From: Eledone cirrhosa
Taxonomy: Eukaryota
Length of the DNA stretch: 64,000 nt
Reading direction: 5' to 3'
Assembly (NCBI GenBank): GCA_964016885.1
Contig: OZ024741.1
Span: 52,886,001-52,950,000 of the forward strand
The notes below the pieces were generated by a model. It made no database searches and was not told where the DNA came from. It saw only the letters and a program-made list of their open reading frames with translations. Position numbers and translations under genes: made by a program. Below are positions 24,253 through 59,235 of this stretch, one piece after another (the stretch's first letter is position 1; each line of letters opens with the position of its first letter).

Positions 24253-24256
<4 letters not shown>

Positions 24257-24435
24257 GTTAATCCGGGTTGAATCGGAGGTAACCACAGTAAGTAAGGTAC
24301 TCAATACATTGCAGAGTATAAAAGTTTTAATATAGATGAGATTCTACAGGACTAGAACTGTTTCATTCTTTAGAAATCATCAGGAATCATGATGATTTCT
24401 AAAGAATGAAACAGTTCTAGTCCTGTAGAATCTCA

Positions 24436-24441
<6 letters not shown>
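24253..24441 (-). mobile_element. Short fold-back element (Penelope-like pLTR-type) with hammerhead core, inserted in (TA)n
   Basis: Perfect 52-bp inverted repeat (24331-24382 / 24390-24441) plus a unique ~78-bp tail; (TA)n on both sides; homologous copy at 58899-59094. Confidence 0.8.
24340..24388 (-). ncRNA. Minimal type I hammerhead ribozyme
   Basis: Minus strand reads GAUUC-CUGAUGA-uuucuaaagaau-GAA-ACAG-uucuaguc-CUGU-A-GAAUC: stem I GAUUC/GAAUC, short stem II UUC/GAA, stem III ACAG/CUGU with palindromic CUAG in the loop, GUA cleavage triplet. Confidence 0.8.
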
Positions 24442-34795: not shown

Positions 34796-34835
<40 letters not shown>

Positions 34836-34887
34836 TTAATAAAAACAATGAATAAAAACAAAGAAACAGTTCCTTATATTAAAAAAT

Positions 34888-35025
34888 TCATCATTTTACG
34901 ATCGTTTCTAGGATATATATGTGTGTGTGTTGGTATGTATATTATATAGATCTATGTAAAAAATTTACAAACTATCAGAGGGAATATACATACCTACACA
35001 GATATATGCTGTCTTCAGAAATAAT
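34888..35025 (-). ncRNA. Hammerhead ribozyme with long stem II (copy in sense with the PLE ORF; outer stem I interrupted by a SINE)
   Basis: Inverted twin of 37376-37513. Confidence 0.65.
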
Positions 35026-35203
35026 TGTTTCTACTTTAGGCACAAGGCCAGCAATTACCCAGTGTATTACTGGTACTTTATTTAATCGACCCCGTAAGGG
35101 TGAAAGGCAAAGTCAACCTCGGCGGGATTTGAACTCAGATCGTAAAGGGACGTAACTATGCTGGAAAGCATGGCGTCCGACCCTCTACCGATACTGCCAA
35201 TCC
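35026..35203 (-). mobile_element. tRNA-derived SINE inserted into the left pLTR arm, TAAT target duplication
   Basis: Absent from the right arm; TAAT at 35022-25 and 35204-07; homologous to the SINEs at 45663-46070. Confidence 0.85.
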
Positions 35204-37375
35204 TAATGATATTTGTTTATTGAAAAACACCAACAAAGATTTAATATAATAGGTTTGTTTGGGAACAGGTTTTGAATTGACCAATAGAAGAGTAGTAAGT
35301 GGTCAAGTTGATAGAATAGTAGTAGTAGAAATTTAATTTAGGGGTAGAGGAATGCAGACTTCAGTTTTGAATGGAAATAATACTTTGAATGAAAAGATTA
35401 CTTTTGGGATGAAAAGAGGTGAAGCCGGTGAAAGGTACACGAAAATTTGATGTTATTAAAGAATAATGCTAATGTTAAAATCGAAGGAGAATAAAATTTT
35501 ACGATAAATGTGTTAGTGAGAAATATCAATCTTATTTAAAACATAAGGTATTTAGATCTATAAAAAGAAATTAAATTAATTTAATTGATAGGTATACTTA
35601 TAGGGATACATTTATATTAATTCATATAGATGTGATAAATAAGAGTTAGATGTTATTAAAGAATCTTGTTAAAAAAGAAGGAAAAACAAATTTGGGGGGA
35701 TAAATGTATTAGTGAGAAATAATCTTATATAGACTACAAGGAATTTAGATTCATAACAGGAAATTAAAATAGTTTATATGTATACTTATAGGTATTAATT
35801 TTAGGAAAAGATAGATGTAAAGGGGAAATAAAATTATGAAGTTCTCAGTAGTAAAATACTAATTATAGGTTAACTAAATAAAAATAAAAAAACTAATTAT
35901 AATAATTTGTAAAATAAAAGTGTATATTAATTAGGTTTATAATATTTGAAAGTTCTTCTAATTCTATGATTGCACGATATAATTAATTCCTGTCGCTTAT
36001 TTAATAGGATATCCTTAGATTTCATTATTTCAAAAAGGTTCTGGGAACATAATCTACACTCATATCTGTTATTTTGATAAGGGGTGGCCCTTTTGAGCAC
36101 ACTCCAGGTCAGGTTATAGTCGATATTCTTTTTTCTATAATTATTAATTATTTCAGCCAAGGATGTTGTATTAGCTAATGCGGCATTTTAAAAAACTGTG
36201 TTTGTGGGTATTAAATCTTACTTTAAATTGGTTAGAAGTAGCTCCTATATATGAATAAGTTGAGTCCTTAGTGCTAATTTTACATTTATATACTATGTTA
36301 TTAATAAGGCAATTTCCTTTTAATGGGCAATTTCTACAGTTACAACCATTCGTGCATATTATATCAGGGGAGTTAGTCAAATTAAGTGTGGTATTTACTC
36401 GACTTGTTGTATGTGAAGGAGGAGATAGTGGTTTCCTGCGGTTTATTTTAGTATTATGGTTAGTTTGATGTGTTGGTGGTATATTCATGTTTTTTTTTAC
36501 ATTTATATGTATTGTAGGCACTTATATTTTGTTGTATATTTTTGGTAGTGGAGTAGGAAAATTTGACCGTTCATCTATTTAAAATCTGATGGTATTTATG
36601 GTTTGGCGGGAAGTTTTTCTCTAGGATAGTAAAAAGTTTTTTAGGGATATTATCTTTAATTTGTAGATTAAATGGAGCATTATACCAAGTAACTCGTCTA
36701 TTACGGTTTCGATGTTGTTTTTTTTTAATTTTTATACGATGTATCCTGATGTTTACTAAGAAAGTAAGTATTAGTGAATTTATTATACATATGTTTAGTT
36801 AGATTCACTGATTTAGGTGTTTTAGTCTGATTATTAGGAACTTTGTTAGTAATGTTATTAACATATATTGGAGTATTAGGCTGAATGGTTTTTTGAAAGT
36901 TATTATATTGTATGTGAGAAGAGGTAGAGAAATTAAGTTTTAAGTTGGTATTTTTGGGTATAGTGTAAGTGGCATTTAGGTGTGGGTTTTTCATTTGGTG
37001 TTTGTTGGTAATATTGGGTTGTATGTTTGTAGTATTATTGTTACAAGGTATATAGACTAATTTGTTTTTGTGGCCGCTTCTAGCTAAAGCTTCGTTATAA
37101 AAGGTCACATTTTTATCGAATACATCCTGGTTAGATGAAATGTTAGAAATTCTGAGTGAGATATTATATGCTAGGTTTTTAAGGATAGATCTAGGGTGAT
37201 TGGATTGTGAGTGTATGTAATGTAAGTTTTGGTTAGGTTTATGGTAAGGTTGGTAGATACTACTACTATTCTATCAACTTGACCATTTACTACTCTTCTA
37301 TTGGTCAATTCAAAACCTGTTCCCAAACAGACCTATTATATTAAATCTTTGTTGGTGTTTTTCAATAAACAAATA

Positions 37376-37513
37376 TCATTATTTCTGAAGACAGCATATA
37401 TATGTGTAGGTATGTGTATTCCCTCTGATAGTTTGTAAAATTTTTACATAGATCTATATGATATACATACCAACACACACATATATATCCTAGAAACGAT
37501 CGTAAAATGATGA
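37376..37513 (+). ncRNA. Hammerhead ribozyme with ~100-nt stem II and palindromic minimal stem III
   Basis: Stem I UCAUUAUUU/AAAUGAUGA (9 bp, one G-U); CUGAAGA at 37385-91; stem II pairs AUAUAUAUGUGU/ACACAUAUAUAU and GGUAUGUGUAU/AUAUACAUACC; GAA-ACGAUCGU-A at 37493-37504. Confidence 0.7.
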
Positions 37514-38420
37514 ATTTTTTAATATAAGAAACTGTTTCTTTGTTTTTATTCATTGTTTTTATTAATTTATCTTGACTCTGTTTTCCTGTGATTTTCATCG
37601 AAAACATTTTTGAATACATCTTTTCTTTTCATGATATTTGGATTCATTTGAGTTCTTCATACGGATTGGACACTACCGTATATTTTGGTAGATTTATCTA
37701 CATATATATATCTATAAGTATTGAAGTTTCCGTTGAAAATAGAAAAAGTCATAGGAGTGAAGAGTGCTCTATGTAAGTACCAGAGCAAAGTTTAATGTAT
37801 AATAAACAATACAATATAATTACCTCATTACCAGAGGTTTCCCGAATAAGACGAATACGAAAGAAACGTCCTCATTCGTTCGTCGGACAAGGCAATATAA
37901 AACATAGTGAAATATTTGGAAAGTCTCCTCAAGAAATGCAAAAAAAATATATATATATAAATAAAAGCAATGCAATAGACATATAAAATATATAAAAAAA
38001 TATAAGGAAATATAGTTAGATATGTGTATATGTATGTATATACACTCACAAATGTACATATGTATGTACAAATGCGTGTGTATGGTGAAAATGTGTGCGT
38101 AAGTACATATATGAGGGCAAGTATATTTGTGTATATGTAACCACAAATACGAATATAATATTAGTTGAAAAAGAAAAAGAAAAAGAAATTGATAATCTAG
38201 TTGACACGCATCCAGAAAACAGGTATTAGATACACAATGAGTATGAAAGCACGCGTATAAACACACACACACGCGCAATCAGTTATATGCGGAAGATAAA
38301 GAGGGAAGGGAGTGTAATAGTTAAAAGAAAGTGTCATTCTCGATACATGTATAAAAATGATACAGTATATGAGAAAGAAAAAAATGTTAAATGAAAGAGA
38401 AAGTAATCGATTAACACTAG

Positions 38421-45662: not shown

Positions 45663-46070
45663 TAGGACGGTGGATTGGCAGCATCGGTTGAAGGTCGGAC
45701 GCCATGCTTTGCAGCATAGAGTTACGGCCATTTATTGTCTGAGTTGAAATCCCGCCGAGGTTAACTTTGCCTTTCATCCTTACGGGGTTGATAAAATAAA
45801 GTACGAGTAACACTCTGGGGTCGATTTAATCGACTTTCCCCTCCCCATCATATTGCTAGCCTTGTGCCTATAGTAGAAACGATTAATATTTAGGACGGTG
45901 GATTGGCAGTATCGGGAGAGGGTCGACGCCATGCTTTGCAGCATAGAGTTAGGGCCATTTACGGTCTGAATTCAAAACCGCCGTGGTTAACTTTGCCTTT
46001 CATCCTTACGAGATCGATAAAATCAAGTACCAGTAACACACTGGGTCGATTTAATCGACTTTTCCTTCCA
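45663..46070 (+). mobile_element. Two tandem tRNA-derived SINEs (45663-45889 complete; 45891-46070 3'-truncated)
   Basis: Both begin TAGGACGGTGGATTGGCAG and share the GGTTAACTTTGCCTTTCATCCTTACG...GATAAAAT..AGTAC central domain (Nin/Deu-like, from memory). Confidence 0.85.
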
Positions 46071-51276: not shown

Positions 51277-51317
<41 letters not shown>

Positions 51318-51324
<7 letters not shown>

Positions 51325-51709
51325 TAGAAATGTTAGCTATCGCCGTATTTTGACTAAAGAAATTAAAGAAATTATTTAGCCTGATAGTGGGGTTAAGAAC
51401 CCTCGGAGAAATGGAAAAAGATGAGTATTGACGTACATGGGAGTCGAACCCACATCTTTGGTTATCCGGACCACTGTGCTGCCATTTACACCGATGTGTT
51501 GGTGTAAATGGTAGCAGAGTGGTCCGGATAACCAAAGATGTGGGTTCGACTCCCATGTACGTCAATACTCATCTTTTTCCATTTCTCCGATGGTTCTTAA
51601 CCCCACTATCAGGCTAAATAATTTCTTTAGTTTCTTTAGTCAAAATACGGCGATAGCTAACATTTCTAATAATTTCAAATCCACTCGCTGTTTCGAAAAT
51701 ATTCTTACT

Positions 51710-51712
<3 letters not shown>
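51318..51712 (+). mobile_element. Fold-back element with tRNA-like head: 175-bp inverted arms plus ~37-bp tail, in (TA)n
   Basis: Arms 51318-51492 and 51501-51675, 4 mismatches, 8-bp spacer; (TA)n on both flanks. Confidence 0.85.
51493..51564 (+). ncRNA. tRNA-like cloverleaf (pseudo-tRNA or Pol III promoter), not a canonical tRNA
   Basis: Acceptor GAUGUGU/GUACGUC (3 G-U); A-box TGGTGTAAATGG; D stem GUGU/GCAG (GCAC in the left copy); anticodon stem UGGU/ACCA with loop CCGGAUA lacking U33 and R37; T arm GUGGG-UUCGACU-CCCAU; T5 at 51574-78. Confidence 0.75.
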
Positions 51713-51753
<41 letters not shown>

Positions 51754-51799
51754 AGGATGAATATAAAATGAAAGTGCTTTTGTTAAAAAAGGAATTTAT

Positions 51800-51922
51800 T
51801 AGGTATTGACATATGTTTCTGTAACAGACCGAATACCTATGTATCGCTGCTTGCGTAATCATATAATGTTAGCAAGTATTCGATAGCAAATGTATAATCA
51901 GTTGTCACTTCTTCAGAGATTT
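51800..51922 (-). ncRNA. Hammerhead-like motif with ~90-nt stem II in the PLE 3' end (stem I atypical)
   Basis: CUGAAGA (51916-10), stem II base GUGACA/UGUUAC, GAA-ACAUAUGU-C (51819-08, palindromic stem III, GUC triplet); canonical stem I pairing is poor. Confidence 0.5.
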
Positions 51923-52390
51923 TGGATAAAATCAGAAAAATTGAAGTATTTATATTAGTAAAAGAGGAAGGAACAGAGGGGATAGTATATGACAGATGGT
52001 AAATTAATTTACTGCTAAACAAGTATATAATGGGTTTCTAATGAGAATACCATGAGTAAATCTAAATAAGAATTTTGGGAGTGCCAATTTTAATCTCTAC
52101 TTGACCAACTGGACAGTGGACAGGGCTGGTCATTTGGTGCAGTAGTATTAATTATAAAGTGTCAATTGGGGAAGGGGGAGATTTCGATTGCTACTAAATA
52201 ACATCTTAGTAGCCAGTTGTTAGTAGCCAGCTGGTATATGCATTAGGGAATTGAATCAAGAAATCAGAAATCTCATTTTATCTATAGCAGTTTGTATTAA
52301 AAGGTAAATAATAGAAGAGTTGATAGAATTAAGACTAATAAAGAATGTTAATATCTATTTTGACAATCAAACGGGGATAGAGACAGGCGT

Positions 52391-54709
52391 TCAATCCTGG
52401 TAGTATTTATAATATGAAAATGTAGATTTTAAGCGATGGTTACAGTATAACGATCGCTCTATTCTGTTATTTAATAAAATGTTTTTGGATTTCATAATAC
52501 AAAATAATTCTACATTACATAATTTACAAAATTCCTGTCCATGGAAATATGGGGGGGCAGCCGCTTTTATATCCCATTTTAGGTGAAATTGTTGGTTATT
52601 TTCACGCAGCTGCCAAGCCTTGTCTGCGAGTGTTGTTACATAACGCTGGTTTTCATGTTTTATCGAGTAACGATGTCTATAAAGGCGTGATTTGAAGGAG
52701 GTGGCTGTAGATCCCACATAGTACCACTTCTGTCTATCCGATTCGATAGTACATTTGTATACGATGTTGCGTTCAAGACACTGATTGTTCAACGGACACA
52801 TTCCTGGTTGGACACAGTTGCAATTATAATTTTGCGTTGTTGTATTGCCATGGATGGGTTGATGAGGTTTCTTATGTAGGACAGGATGTTGTTTGTTGTT
52901 TTGTGATGTTATAGCTAATGTTTTACGTGTATTGTTATGTGTTGGAAGGCGTTTATACAACCGTTTTGCGTTAAGCTTCTTTATATGTTGTTCAATATTA
53001 GGGGCGGTTGAATATGAAAGTCGAATAGTGTTAGGGTTTAAGATTTTATTATATTTATGTGATGTTGGAAAGTGTTTTTTAACTAATCGAAAGAATTTTG
53101 AGGGTAGATTGGTTTTAATAGAGTTGTTATAGACCGGGTTGTACCAAATATACTCCTTACATCGCCTTCTGTTTGGTGGTGTGCGACTATTATTGTGTCT
53201 ATTGCCGTAGTGTATGTATGGTGGTGATTCTGTGCTATTTCTACTCCTATGTGATTTATTTTGGGTGTTTTGATGATCTTTGACTATATACTCTATATTA
53301 TCTAGGTGACCGGCTTTCCTAAGTGCATCATCATAATACTCGGCATGTTCTTTGAAGGTTTGTTGGTTGGACGACAGGCGGGAGATCCTAAGAGAAACAT
53401 TTCTAGGGATGGATTTAATTATAGAGAGTGGATGGTTAGAACTCGTCTTTACATATTTAAGGTTCTCATTTAGTTTATGGAACGGTTTAATCGTATCTGT
53501 ATTGAGATTGAAAGTAACATCAAGGAAATTGACCTCTTTGAGGTTATATTCAAATGTAATATTTAATCCTAGTTCCTTAAAAAGCTTTCTGATATTTTTA
53601 CGCATCCTTTCTAAATTCTGGTTATTCATATGCTTAACTAATAGGAGCGCATCGTCACGGTAGATTCCACCGTGGAGATCCTTGAATTTTCCTTGTAATC
53701 TGTGGGTGATATAAATTCCCACAAGATCTGTTACTTCCGCCGAATCATTAGAACCCATAGTGATATCAAAATTAGAAGGTCTATCTTTGCGAACCCAGTA
53801 GCTATCATCGAATTTAACTATAGTTTTCCTCGCTTCCATAATAATTTTAATTTCAGCATCCGTAAGGTCGGAATTATCCTTAGCGAACGAAAGAGCTTCA
53901 TGTAGAGTATCAGGTGAAATTGAGGAATAATATTCATCAATATCAAACTGAATAAATTTTGATTTTTTCTTATCAGTAATGTTATTAAACCATCTTATTG
54001 CTTCATGAGTGTTACCCCATAGTTTAATCTCTACTTTAACCTTAACTTGGGGGATAATTCTGTCTAGTATATATTTGCTAATTTTGCCTATATCAGATTT
54101 AGAGGGGCATATAAGTCTAATATTAGAGTTAGTATCGAAGTTTACCTTGTGGTCCTTCAGGTTGAAGGATGGTATAGCTGGTGTTAAGGGTTGCGTTCTA
54201 TCGTCAATACAAAGTTTTTTAACAATATCATATGCCGAGTTGTTGATGTTTTTAAGTGTAGCTTCATTAGTTTTCTTGTATTTTTTATGCAATTCCTTAC
54301 GGATGAAGTTATTGTAAGTGTCCACATCCATGGTATATACGTTTGATGTTTTGTCTGCTCTAACAATAATTCCATTGGCGTTTTTTAGATTATTGAGCAG
54401 TGCCGTGATGTCATTCTGTAGTTTATTGTTCTTCCGTTTTGTAAATTTGATCTCCATGATCATATCCATTAGGTCTTGTTCAAATGAATCCAAAAGTGGG
54501 TTTGAGGGTGGGTTCTTGTAAGATTTAAATCCAAATTTATCCTTGTTAAGATCCGATGTTTGGTTTATACGGCTTTTGTCAAAATGGAATGTTTTCCATC
54601 TGATTCGTCGAATAAAATCATTGGTCCTTCGTATCATACCTAGAATATATTCCCTTTTTGCAAGAATAGGTATGTTTTTTAACGACATATCCAATTGGTG
54701 CCTTTCCAT
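52391..54709 (-). CDS. Penelope-like reverse transcriptase plus C-terminal GIY-YIG endonuclease (772 aa, uninterrupted)
   Basis: N-terminal SLKNIP...RRIRWK; RT motifs FDIDEYYSSI, FDITMGSND, IYRDD, VNFLDV, SSNHP; endonuclease CNC...CPLNNQC, IVYKC...YVG...FKSR, CKLCNVE, LLN...CNH. Confidence 0.93.
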   Translation of the reverse strand: MERHQLDMSLKNIPILAKREYILGMIRRTNDFIRRIRWKTFHFDKSRINQTSDLNKDKFGFKSYKNPPSNPLLDSFEQDLMDMIMEIKFTKRKNNKLQNDITALLNNLKNANGIIVRADKTSNVYTMDVDTYNNFIRKELHKKYKKTNEATLKNINNSAYDIVKKLCIDDRTQPLTPAIPSFNLKDHKVNFDTNSNIRLICPSKSDIGKISKYILDRIIPQVKVKVEIKLWGNTHEAIRWFNNITDKKKSKFIQFDIDEYYSSISPDTLHEALSFAKDNSDLTDAEIKIIMEARKTIVKFDDSYWVRKDRPSNFDITMGSNDSAEVTDLVGIYITHRLQGKFKDLHGGIYRDDALLLVKHMNNQNLERMRKNIRKLFKELGLNITFEYNLKEVNFLDVTFNLNTDTIKPFHKLNENLKYVKTSSNHPLSIIKSIPRNVSLRISRLSSNQQTFKEHAEYYDDALRKAGHLDNIEYIVKDHQNTQNKSHRSRNSTESPPYIHYGNRHNNSRTPPNRRRCKEYIWYNPVYNNSIKTNLPSKFFRLVKKHFPTSHKYNKILNPNTIRLSYSTAPNIEQHIKKLNAKRLYKRLPTHNNTRKTLAITSQNNKQHPVLHKKPHQPIHGNTTTQNYNCNCVQPGMCPLNNQCLERNIVYKCTIESDRQKWYYVGSTATSFKSRLYRHRYSIKHENQRYVTTLADKAWQLRENNQQFHLKWDIKAAAPPYFHGQEFCKLCNVELFCIMKSKNILLNNRIERSLYCNHRLKSTFSYYKYYQD

Positions 54710-55105
54710 TTTAGAGGCGTATGCTGAATTAGTTGCTCAACTGTATAGGAGATTAATAAAATTTCAGGTTATCAATAATGTAGTGATAATATATCGTTAC
54801 GTTAGAGATGAACAGCGTACGTGCAGGTTTGCTCAACGAGTATAAATTATATTCCGGAGAAAATGTAGAAAGGATGAATATATAGTAGAATAATCGAGTA
54901 TCGAAAAATCGGCGCACGAGTTCACGATAAACAAAATTCGATATGAGCGGCAGAGGGCTCCATAATTTAGATAAATCAGAGCTATAACTATCGTTAAAAT
55001 ACCGTCACACATAGAACAAGTCTATAATCAACCGTACGATCGAAAAGTTGCGATCTGGAAGATTCGGGACACTCAGATAAAAAATCAATAAATCAATAAA
55101 TCAAA

Positions 55106-55152
<47 letters not shown>

Positions 55153-56549: not shown

Positions 56550-56665
56550 TAAATCCCGCCGAGGTTAACTTTGCCTTTCATCCTTATGGGGTCGATAAAA
56601 TAAAGTACCAGTAATGTACTGGGTAATTGCTGGCCTTGTGCCAAAAGTAGAAACAATTACTTCTA
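56550..56665 (+). mobile_element. SINE 3' half (family of 45663)
   Basis: aaatcccgccgaggttaactttgcctttcatcc...gccttgtgccaaaagtagaaac. Confidence 0.8.
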
Positions 56666-58761: not shown

Positions 58762-58898
58762 ATATGTATATGTATGTATATATATATATATATATGTATA
58801 TGTATATGTATATATATATATAAATTTATATATATATATATATGTATATGTATATGTATAAATATATATATATATATATATATACATATATAAGACAT

Positions 58899-59235
<337 letters not shown>

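Follow-up and report, generated by a model that had tools for sequence, protein, structure and literature searches.

A non-coding repeat with a tRNA-Gln-derived cloverleaf and Penelope-type insertion ends in the genome of Eledone cirrhosa

Parasites derived from small RNAs are known from retrotransposon classes other than the Penelope-like elements (PLEs), with SINEs depending on LINEs, and Cassandra and Helenus on LTR elements. The PLE parasites described in the parts of the literature covered here carry hammerheads or pLTR remnants, Sm-alpha being the one tRNA-bearing case found. The closest known systems to the repeat analyzed in this study, which was found in a 64,000-nt stretch of the Eledone cirrhosa genome (termed the window), are schistosome Sm-alpha and the non-LTR retrozymes. 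Animal non-LTR retrozymes constitute non-autonomous PLE derivatives that were proposed to be moved by PLEs (bioRxiv 10.64898/2026.07.22.740005; PMC7229834). Like the Eledone element, they are non-coding and of similar size, and exist as monomers, dimers, multimers and satellites (bioRxiv 10.64898/2026.07.22.740005; PMC7229834). However, each retrozyme unit is defined by a type I hammerhead, which is absent in the Eledone element, and the term “tRNA” does not appear in the main text of the retrozyme paper (bioRxiv 10.64898/2026.07.22.740005). In addition, no pLTR parent was found for the Eledone element. Sm-alpha and Sj-alpha of Schistosoma likewise consist of a short tandem unit with a tRNA-Gln-derived part (PMC2770079), and Sm-alpha has multimeric transcripts and needs tandems for its propagation (PMC6765202). 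Sm-alpha differs by its hammerhead, whose core is not present in the Eledone element, and by its reported Pol III transcription (PMC2770079; PMC6765202), whereas the Eledone element adds a long predicted stem closing the cloverleaf and PLE-type ends documented copy by copy.

Other systems share single traits. Chlamys MRC1 is also a non-autonomous PLE, with pLTRs, head-to-tail insertions and mostly no hammerheads, but the Chlamys non-autonomous elements share 3' sequence with autonomous families and are described without a tRNA part in the sections covered (PMC8557442). Helenus and Cassandra (TRIMp3) are non-autonomous and carry a small-RNA-derived segment within a terminal repeat, which in Helenus is a tRNA within an LTR; they depend on LTR retrotransposons (PBS, PPT, 4-5-bp TSD), in contrast to the PLE-type ends of the Eledone element (PMC10886601). 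A published repeat set of Octopus vulgaris includes 893 unclassified active SINE families, among which an element such as that of Eledone could hide (PMC13282606), and the portion of PMC4758252 covered added nothing to the comparison. A full-text literature search retrieved no hammerhead-free, tRNA-bearing element with PLE-type ends in the texts covered, Repbase, Dfam and supplements being outside its scope. The tRNA-derived SINEs, compared by description only and including octopus OK, OR1 and OR2, resemble the Eledone element in their A and B boxes, short length and high copy number; in the latter, however, the tRNA is internal and no LINE tail, poly-A or TSD is visible. These octopus SINEs were reportedly described by Ohshima and Okada in 1994. 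Judged by its sequence, the element is neither a SINE, as its tRNA is internal and a LINE tail is lacking, nor a retrozyme, as it carries no hammerhead.

Published PLE insertions are characterized by inverted copies at the 5' end, by partial tandems and by a tail of 30-40 nt, and they target (TA)n, a preference of Hydra, Neptune and Naiad PLEs (PMC8557442, sections covered). According to the part of a second study that was covered, the tail is bounded by two internal RT start sites, with cleavage and extension of both strands of the target; in vitro, cDNA of an anole PLE starts internally at two sites (PMC11167929).

The Eledone locus (51318..51712) consists of two arms, 51318-51492 and 51501-51675, which are reverse complements over 175 bp with four mismatches (51363, 51402, 51476 and 51481) and are separated by an 8-nt spacer. 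The only tRNA called by ARAGORN in the window, at 51493-51564 on the plus strand, scored 34.3 bits against Rfam RF00005 (gathering score 29). This agrees with a first-pass annotation of the window, according to which a 72-nt cloverleaf begins at the first letter of the spacer, G51493. The same annotation had noted an inverted 175-bp copy upstream, with four mismatches and without the last ~37 bp, which the arm alignment reproduced, and a setting in (TA)n beside a PLE of 772 aa, which also holds: (TA)n flanks the locus on the left (51278..51317) and on the right (51713..51750), where it is shared with the PLE, whose 3' end lies at about 51750. The T5 run, placed 10 nt after the cloverleaf by that annotation, actually begins 9 nt past it (51574-51578).

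With unit numbering set to tRNA +1 at 51493, the forward arm (51493..51712, plus strand) comprises unit 1-220 of a 271-272-bp monomer, without a 51-nt linker/leader, and extends 37 nt beyond the paired arm. The inverted arm (51318..51492, minus strand) runs from unit 183 to 9, lacks the tail and is likely a second cDNA that began at the inner RT start; the two cDNAs would have reached +1 and +9. Within the forward arm, a D-arm segment read from the sequence (51500..51511) is A-box-like, and a B-box/T-loop with A58 lies at 51543..51553. Mixed substitutions occur at unit 18 and 22 (window 51510 and 51514) in 8/48 and 9/48 family-A segments, respectively, with a background of about 3%; they are outside CpG and may be subfamily variants or RT errors at modified bases.

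Searching the genome (3.0 Gb, 1,796 contigs) with 51493-51712 yielded 1,833 first-look candidates, 40 of which were scored. A 24-mer of the tail had 1,417 exact matches and its reversed control none, so that the family, termed A, cannot be attributed to chance; the genome search called for by the first-pass annotation thus gave a multi-copy element with more than 1,400 copies by this measure. Tandem loci with a spacing of 270-272 bp define a family-A monomer of 271-272 bp, in which the tRNA (1-72), the body (73-181) and the tail (182-220) are followed by a 51-nt linker, after which the next tRNA begins. A 23-mer of the linker matched the genome 433 times, and the linker ran into the tRNA in all 30 linker loci read. 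An autonomous element sharing the linker was dismissed on these same 30/30 loci. The description of the unit as tRNA-headed is not borne out at the family level: the conserved 51-nt linker precedes the tRNA and has been lost from the copy at 51318-51712.

Family-A segments deviate from the column majority at about 3% of positions (127 segments), and by this divergence the family appears to be young. Minority variants are common to neighboring units of a tandem 12 times more often than to unrelated copies (0.020 versus 0.0016 per site), a result equally compatible with a circle, with repeated template jumps and with later duplication. The monomer has no coding content and is of the short tandem type (about 170-400 nt class), as are those of two sister families, B (about 289-293 bp) and C (290 bp). 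A TATA box in the linker was considered and rejected, since it is not kept in family C, where a small hairpin is kept instead. At C2:314.53-314.63 Mb (G000), a 7.2-kb segmental tandem repeat carries one family insertion in each unit read; as a segmental duplication with one insertion per unit, this array at C2:314.5 Mb was rejected as the family source.

The ends of the insertions were mapped in the first 95 of the 1,417 tail matches in list order, corresponding to 87 distinct loci after removal of three duplicates. Forward arms end at unit 215-223 in 85 of the 87, which at the locus corresponds to the outer fixed end (unit 215-220, putative RT start site B) of the 37-nt PLE-type tail (51676..51712). 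An inverted arm is present in 66 loci, and not one of these arms has its end at 215-223; in 48 of them the end falls within unit 170-183, with a mode of 181, the equivalent at the locus being the inner fixed end at 51662..51675 (putative RT start site A). (TA)n abuts the right end in 79/87 and the left end in 73/87 loci; a TSD is unreadable inside (TA)n. The two arms agree in their subfamily allele at the diagnostic unit position 167 in 49/51 loci, which is what copying from a single template or subfamily would produce. Because two fixed 3' ends, an inverted arm without tail and (TA)n targets match the published PLE pattern, the family was very probably moved by PLE-type mobilization, and the first-pass proposal to this effect is strengthened by the 87 loci.

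An ordinary LINE-mobilized SINE, or an assembly fold-back artefact, is given almost no weight. A single copy looks SINE-like with its tRNA-related sequence, body and tail, but family A has no poly-A or simple-repeat tail of its own, its ends being fixed internal positions joined to (TA)n, and two fixed 3' ends, inverted arms in 66/87 loci and linker tandems are at odds with this explanation. As to assembly, the four arm differences at the locus are single-arm departures from the letters usual in the family, three of which were confirmed as such in independent reads. Moreover, a fold-back joint of the family at unit 62 is found in raw DNA reads of another sample (nine reads, four starts), so that the family fold-backs are not assembly errors; together with the single-arm differences and the asymmetry of the tail, this argues against an artefact. 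At the family level, the ends at 87 loci and the raw-read joints refute both versions.

The window also contains hammerhead fold-backs in (TA)n, at 24253-24437 (minus) and 58889-59095 (plus), the latter a diverged relative of the former. The resemblance drawn by the first-pass annotation between these and the tRNA-bearing locus has gained substance, as they were traced to the 5' UTR/pLTR of an intact PLE family with a protein of 758 aa. Specifically, 136 nt of the fold-back at 24253-24437 differ at five positions from the 5' UTR of this Hydra-type family (L451-L456). On sequence grounds, the fold-back serves as an internal control, indicating that an intact PLE family of this genome makes the same fold-backs. 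It is a 5'-UTR cDNA that ends early at the ribozyme, has a tail of about 72-77 nt and returned 555 first-look candidates. The strict hammerhead core was absent from families A, B and C on both strands, and the same scan found the positive control; a Rfam hammerhead search, which missed the positive control, is uninformative.

The sister families exhibit the two-end layout of family A with longer tails of their own, the tail lengths in the three families being about 39, 50-60 and 60-64 nt. Family B (176 exact tail matches) is older, its copies being about 85-88% alike, and family C has 1,083 tail matches, with 41/44 forward ends at 226-240 and 17/22 inverted ends at 160-176. A probable several hundred tRNA-like units occur in one array at C28:19,449,737-19,697,764 (G000), a satellite of about 250 kb whose 290-bp family-C monomer is about 93% like a dispersed copy. 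In one arm of locus L208 (G000:C1:171.718 Mb), the linker is of family A, whereas the tRNA and body connected to it are of family B; the two arms differ by about 17%, and the locus is possibly an intermediate subfamily or a template switch.

Eight older copies share 18/18 D-arm letters with host tRNA-Gln genes, from which the domain thus derives. The older sister families represented by L402, L404, L410, L413, L414, L416, L418 and L420 have kept the tRNA-Gln D-arm unaltered but show a T in place of A58; the sequences suggest that A and C have regained their canonical T-loop. A search for a phage tRNA returned nothing below E = 8. In the host, about 29 tRNA-Gln-type genes are clustered at C1:168.21-168.28 Mb (G000), and several of them have a CTA anticodon, called “Pyl” by ARAGORN, and probably arose by mutation of copies within a duplicated block. 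The sister families have different anticodon loops (CCGGATA, CTGGATA, CCGGCAA, CATGATA), the acceptor end is broken in family C, and the “Ser” call comes without a long variable arm. By these features, the cloverleaf is read as not being a decoding or functional tRNA. An alternative raised in the first-pass annotation, a tRNA-like gene within a pLTR-like unit, therefore holds in part: it comes closer to the anatomy, but with a drifting anticodon loop the cloverleaf is not that of a decoding tRNA.

Which RNA is copied can be approached from the 5' ends of the cDNAs. Thirty of 41 family-A cDNAs reaching tRNA +1 continue upstream into the linker and 11 stop at -5..+6, where 1.4 would be expected; in family C, all 21 arrivals pass +1 and none stops (Fisher p 0.011 against A). 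The stops in A fit some Pol III-type starts or RNase P cuts. An RNase Z product was rejected as template, with few 5' ends at unit 72-74. The T-run after the tRNA is predicted to pair with a purine-rich upstream leader in a stem of 17-21 bp, whose length co-varies between families; in full units, this stem would join the trailer (51567..51585 at the locus) to the leader at -18..-1. The duplex energy averages -16.9 kcal/mol in 37 copies, chosen from 49 matched, all 37 lying below the best of 25 host tRNA-Gln genes (host mean -4.9). Folding z-scores range from -2.0 to -5.1 for four element copies, compared with -0.1 for one host gene; the circular fold of the family-A monomer is unremarkable (z = -1.1), and that of B reaches -3.2, but the B reverse strand also reaches -2.8. 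The middle of the stem measures 8/8 nt in 16/17 A-type copies, 11/11 nt in L416 and 10/10 nt in 10/19 family-B copies, the others varying with slippage of the T-run. Among 23 changes in the leader between copies, 15 are A>G, which retains G-U pairs at the RNA level. In the MAFFT alignment the leaders of A and B were out of register, and the “compensatory” counts from RNAalifold were for this reason left out.

The passage of cDNAs through +1, the conserved leader-trailer stem and the T6 and T7 runs that precede the two RT sites in family B lead us to infer that the copied RNA usually holds the leader and more than one unit; the usual template would thus be an RNA longer than the tRNA-headed unit. 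The T5-T7 runs favor Pol II or read-through over plain Pol III, as far as can be told from the sequence. A role of Pol III is possible, as every family retains the A-box and T-stem and the B-box is perfect in the young ones. This bears on the reading of the family as a true SINE mobilized by PLEs, in which Pol III would start at about -4..+1 from the A and B boxes, read through T5 and supply a monomer for copying by PLE machinery. Such a scenario would explain the intact A-box and B-box of families A and C and the excess of 5' ends at -5..+6 in A (11/41), as well as the starts of copies L007, L010, L019 and L024 at -4 or -5, and it is in line with T5 as the sole T4+ run in the family-A unit and with Sm-alpha, in which Pol III can drive tandem tRNA-Gln elements (PMC6765202, part covered). 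Nevertheless, it is judged unlikely, as most cDNAs pass +1 in A and all do so in C, as in family B both RT sites come after T6 and T7 runs and A58 is missing, and as the leader, which would lie upstream of such a start, is kept paired with the trailer. A Pol III tRNA-headed monomer, as first proposed, is hence not upheld as the usual template (30/41 and 21/21 pass +1), the T-run being a strand of the stem.

A second feature of the cDNAs is their frequent stop within the T-arm. Of 107 family-A arms arriving at unit 68, 56 stop at unit 56-67 (3.5 expected; peak at 62), which corresponds to the 3' strand of the T-stem at 51548..51559. Family C, with a canonical T-loop, was predicted beforehand to show the hot spot, and 27/53 of its arms stop at the T-arm (1.5 expected; 44 loci). 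Family B has the T-stem and palindromes of A but a T instead of A58, and its 4 stops among about 41 arms represent no excess (49 loci from the first 52 of 176 matches; Fisher p 1.4e-6 against A and 2e-5 against C). The contrast is one between two lineages, A plus C on one side and B on the other; the latter is of greater age and noisier, and a different RT may have copied it. The likeliest cause is that the folded T-loop/elbow, or a protein bound to it, would block the RT. Palindromes alone were rejected as the cause, since B has the same ones without a hot spot; stopped ends join via CATG/GTAC/ACGT palindromes or via AT microhomology to the target. A tRNA-less subfamily master behind the unit-62 stops was also rejected, given several haplotypes and different partner junctions. 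The modification m1A58 was considered as a further cause of RT stops; it is possible and not favored, because the peak lies 4-5 nt 3' of A58 and read-through copies keep the A (40/41 in A, 26/27 in C).

The loss of about half of the cDNAs at the T-arm could indicate that a tRNA-Gln gene entered a small, pLTR-derived non-autonomous PLE and is a passenger without a role in its spread, with the stem as an inversion relic kept by template-switch repair. The layout of flank, tRNA and oligo-T, which resembles that of a whole host gene, and the drift of the anticodon loop are compatible with this explanation as well. We regard it as very unlikely: between A and B, the cloverleaf is among the best-kept parts (61/72 identical positions, versus 56/88 in the body and 23/39 in the tail), the preponderance of A>G changes in the leader (15/23) preserves G-U pairs, and host tRNA-Gln genes have no such stem.

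Our preferred reading, which we consider probable, is that of a non-coding 271-272-bp repeat with an internal tRNA-Gln cloverleaf, copied in trans by a PLE from multimer or circle RNA. A tandem copy would likely be transcribed through several units, and the RNA is predicted to fold with the cloverleaf closed by the long leader-trailer stem. The PLE protein would nick both (TA)n strands, and cDNA would begin at two internal sites, unit ~181 and ~220. The T-arm would be the most frequent stopping point of the two cDNAs, whose head-to-head joining via short palindromes would give rise to a fold-back with the tail on one side.

The search for the autonomous partner began with the neighboring PLE (51750..54882, minus strand). 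Its ORF (54709-52391, minus) spans 772 aa from the ATG, remains under 3 kb and has no Pfam family; the translation contains RWK, DKT, a CxCX5C linker and, at the C terminus, GIY-YIG. By these motifs, it is assigned to the Hydra clade, following the traits in section 11 of PMC8557442. The genome holds 1,605 first-look candidates of this PLE, and 626 relatives at E <= 1e-10 were found among 7,997 scored. A scan of the window detected no hammerhead core inside it with the strict descriptor used. On its 5' side it is joined to a different (TA)n-inserted repeat end (54883-55110), a similar sequence of which flanks L026. A special link between the element and the adjacent PLE, as implied by the first-pass annotation, receives no support: the tail of the PLE measures about 111 nt, none of its 19 other copies adjoins the tRNA element, and the similarity of its ends to the unit is not significant (141/500 shuffles as good over a wider region). 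As partner or source of the body it was also rejected, a 26-nt likeness at the inner end being equaled by 13/300 shuffles (best of nine targets), with 0/19 copies adjacent. The two elements are adjacent because both target (TA)n.

Comparison of the unit with four other intact Hydra-type families, derived from 42 loci, gave nothing significant either (best 2/200 in 12 comparisons). The likeness of body and tail to PLE ends, for which a comparison had been advised at the outset, was thus not significant in any of the five families, with the best 65 of 90,866 first-look candidates scored; likewise, 967 kb of masked flanks yielded no shared motif. Besides the neighboring PLE, at least four intact Hydra-type families are seen at L421-L462, with open frames of about 714, 719 and 758 aa and, in all of them, a AGCACTCT motif shortly upstream of the start codon. 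A second, broken Hydra-type PLE lies in the window at 35900-37700 (minus), 43-47% identical in pieces to the neighboring ORF, and a related piece is located at 34831-35316. The window further comprises a long degenerate tandem array (1-23650; about 84% identity between offsets) and copies of another abundant SINE-like repeat unrelated to the tRNA-element family (35017-35203, 45663-46069 and 56551-56664).

Several implications would follow for PLEs and for genomes of this kind. Family A would inflate the counts of tRNA (Ser-GGA) and of “unclassified SINE” entries in such genomes. The stop at the T-arm suggests that maps of genomic truncations can serve as a germline readout of RNA structure or of bound factors. 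With 270-290 nt, the units would represent a minimal PLE template that is young, high-copy and hammerhead-free, with two putative, mapped RT start sites, and that bears on the questions of what a PLE RT recognizes, what sets the length of the tail and whether the hammerhead is dispensable. The families would constitute a ribozyme-free, tRNA-bearing counterpart of the retrozyme parasites. Tentatively, they may represent a ribozyme-free class of PLE parasites, in which a captured tRNA-Gln with its long leader-trailer stem would replace the hammerhead as the RNA module, and in which the tRNA machinery of the host, by folding, binding or processing the multimer, would provide a stable template that may be circular, this engagement being recorded as a T-loop-dependent RT stop. 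If this is true, these families would correspond, for PLEs, to SINEs and Helenus, and their thousands of genomic copies would constitute an in vivo footprint of the structure of the template RNA.
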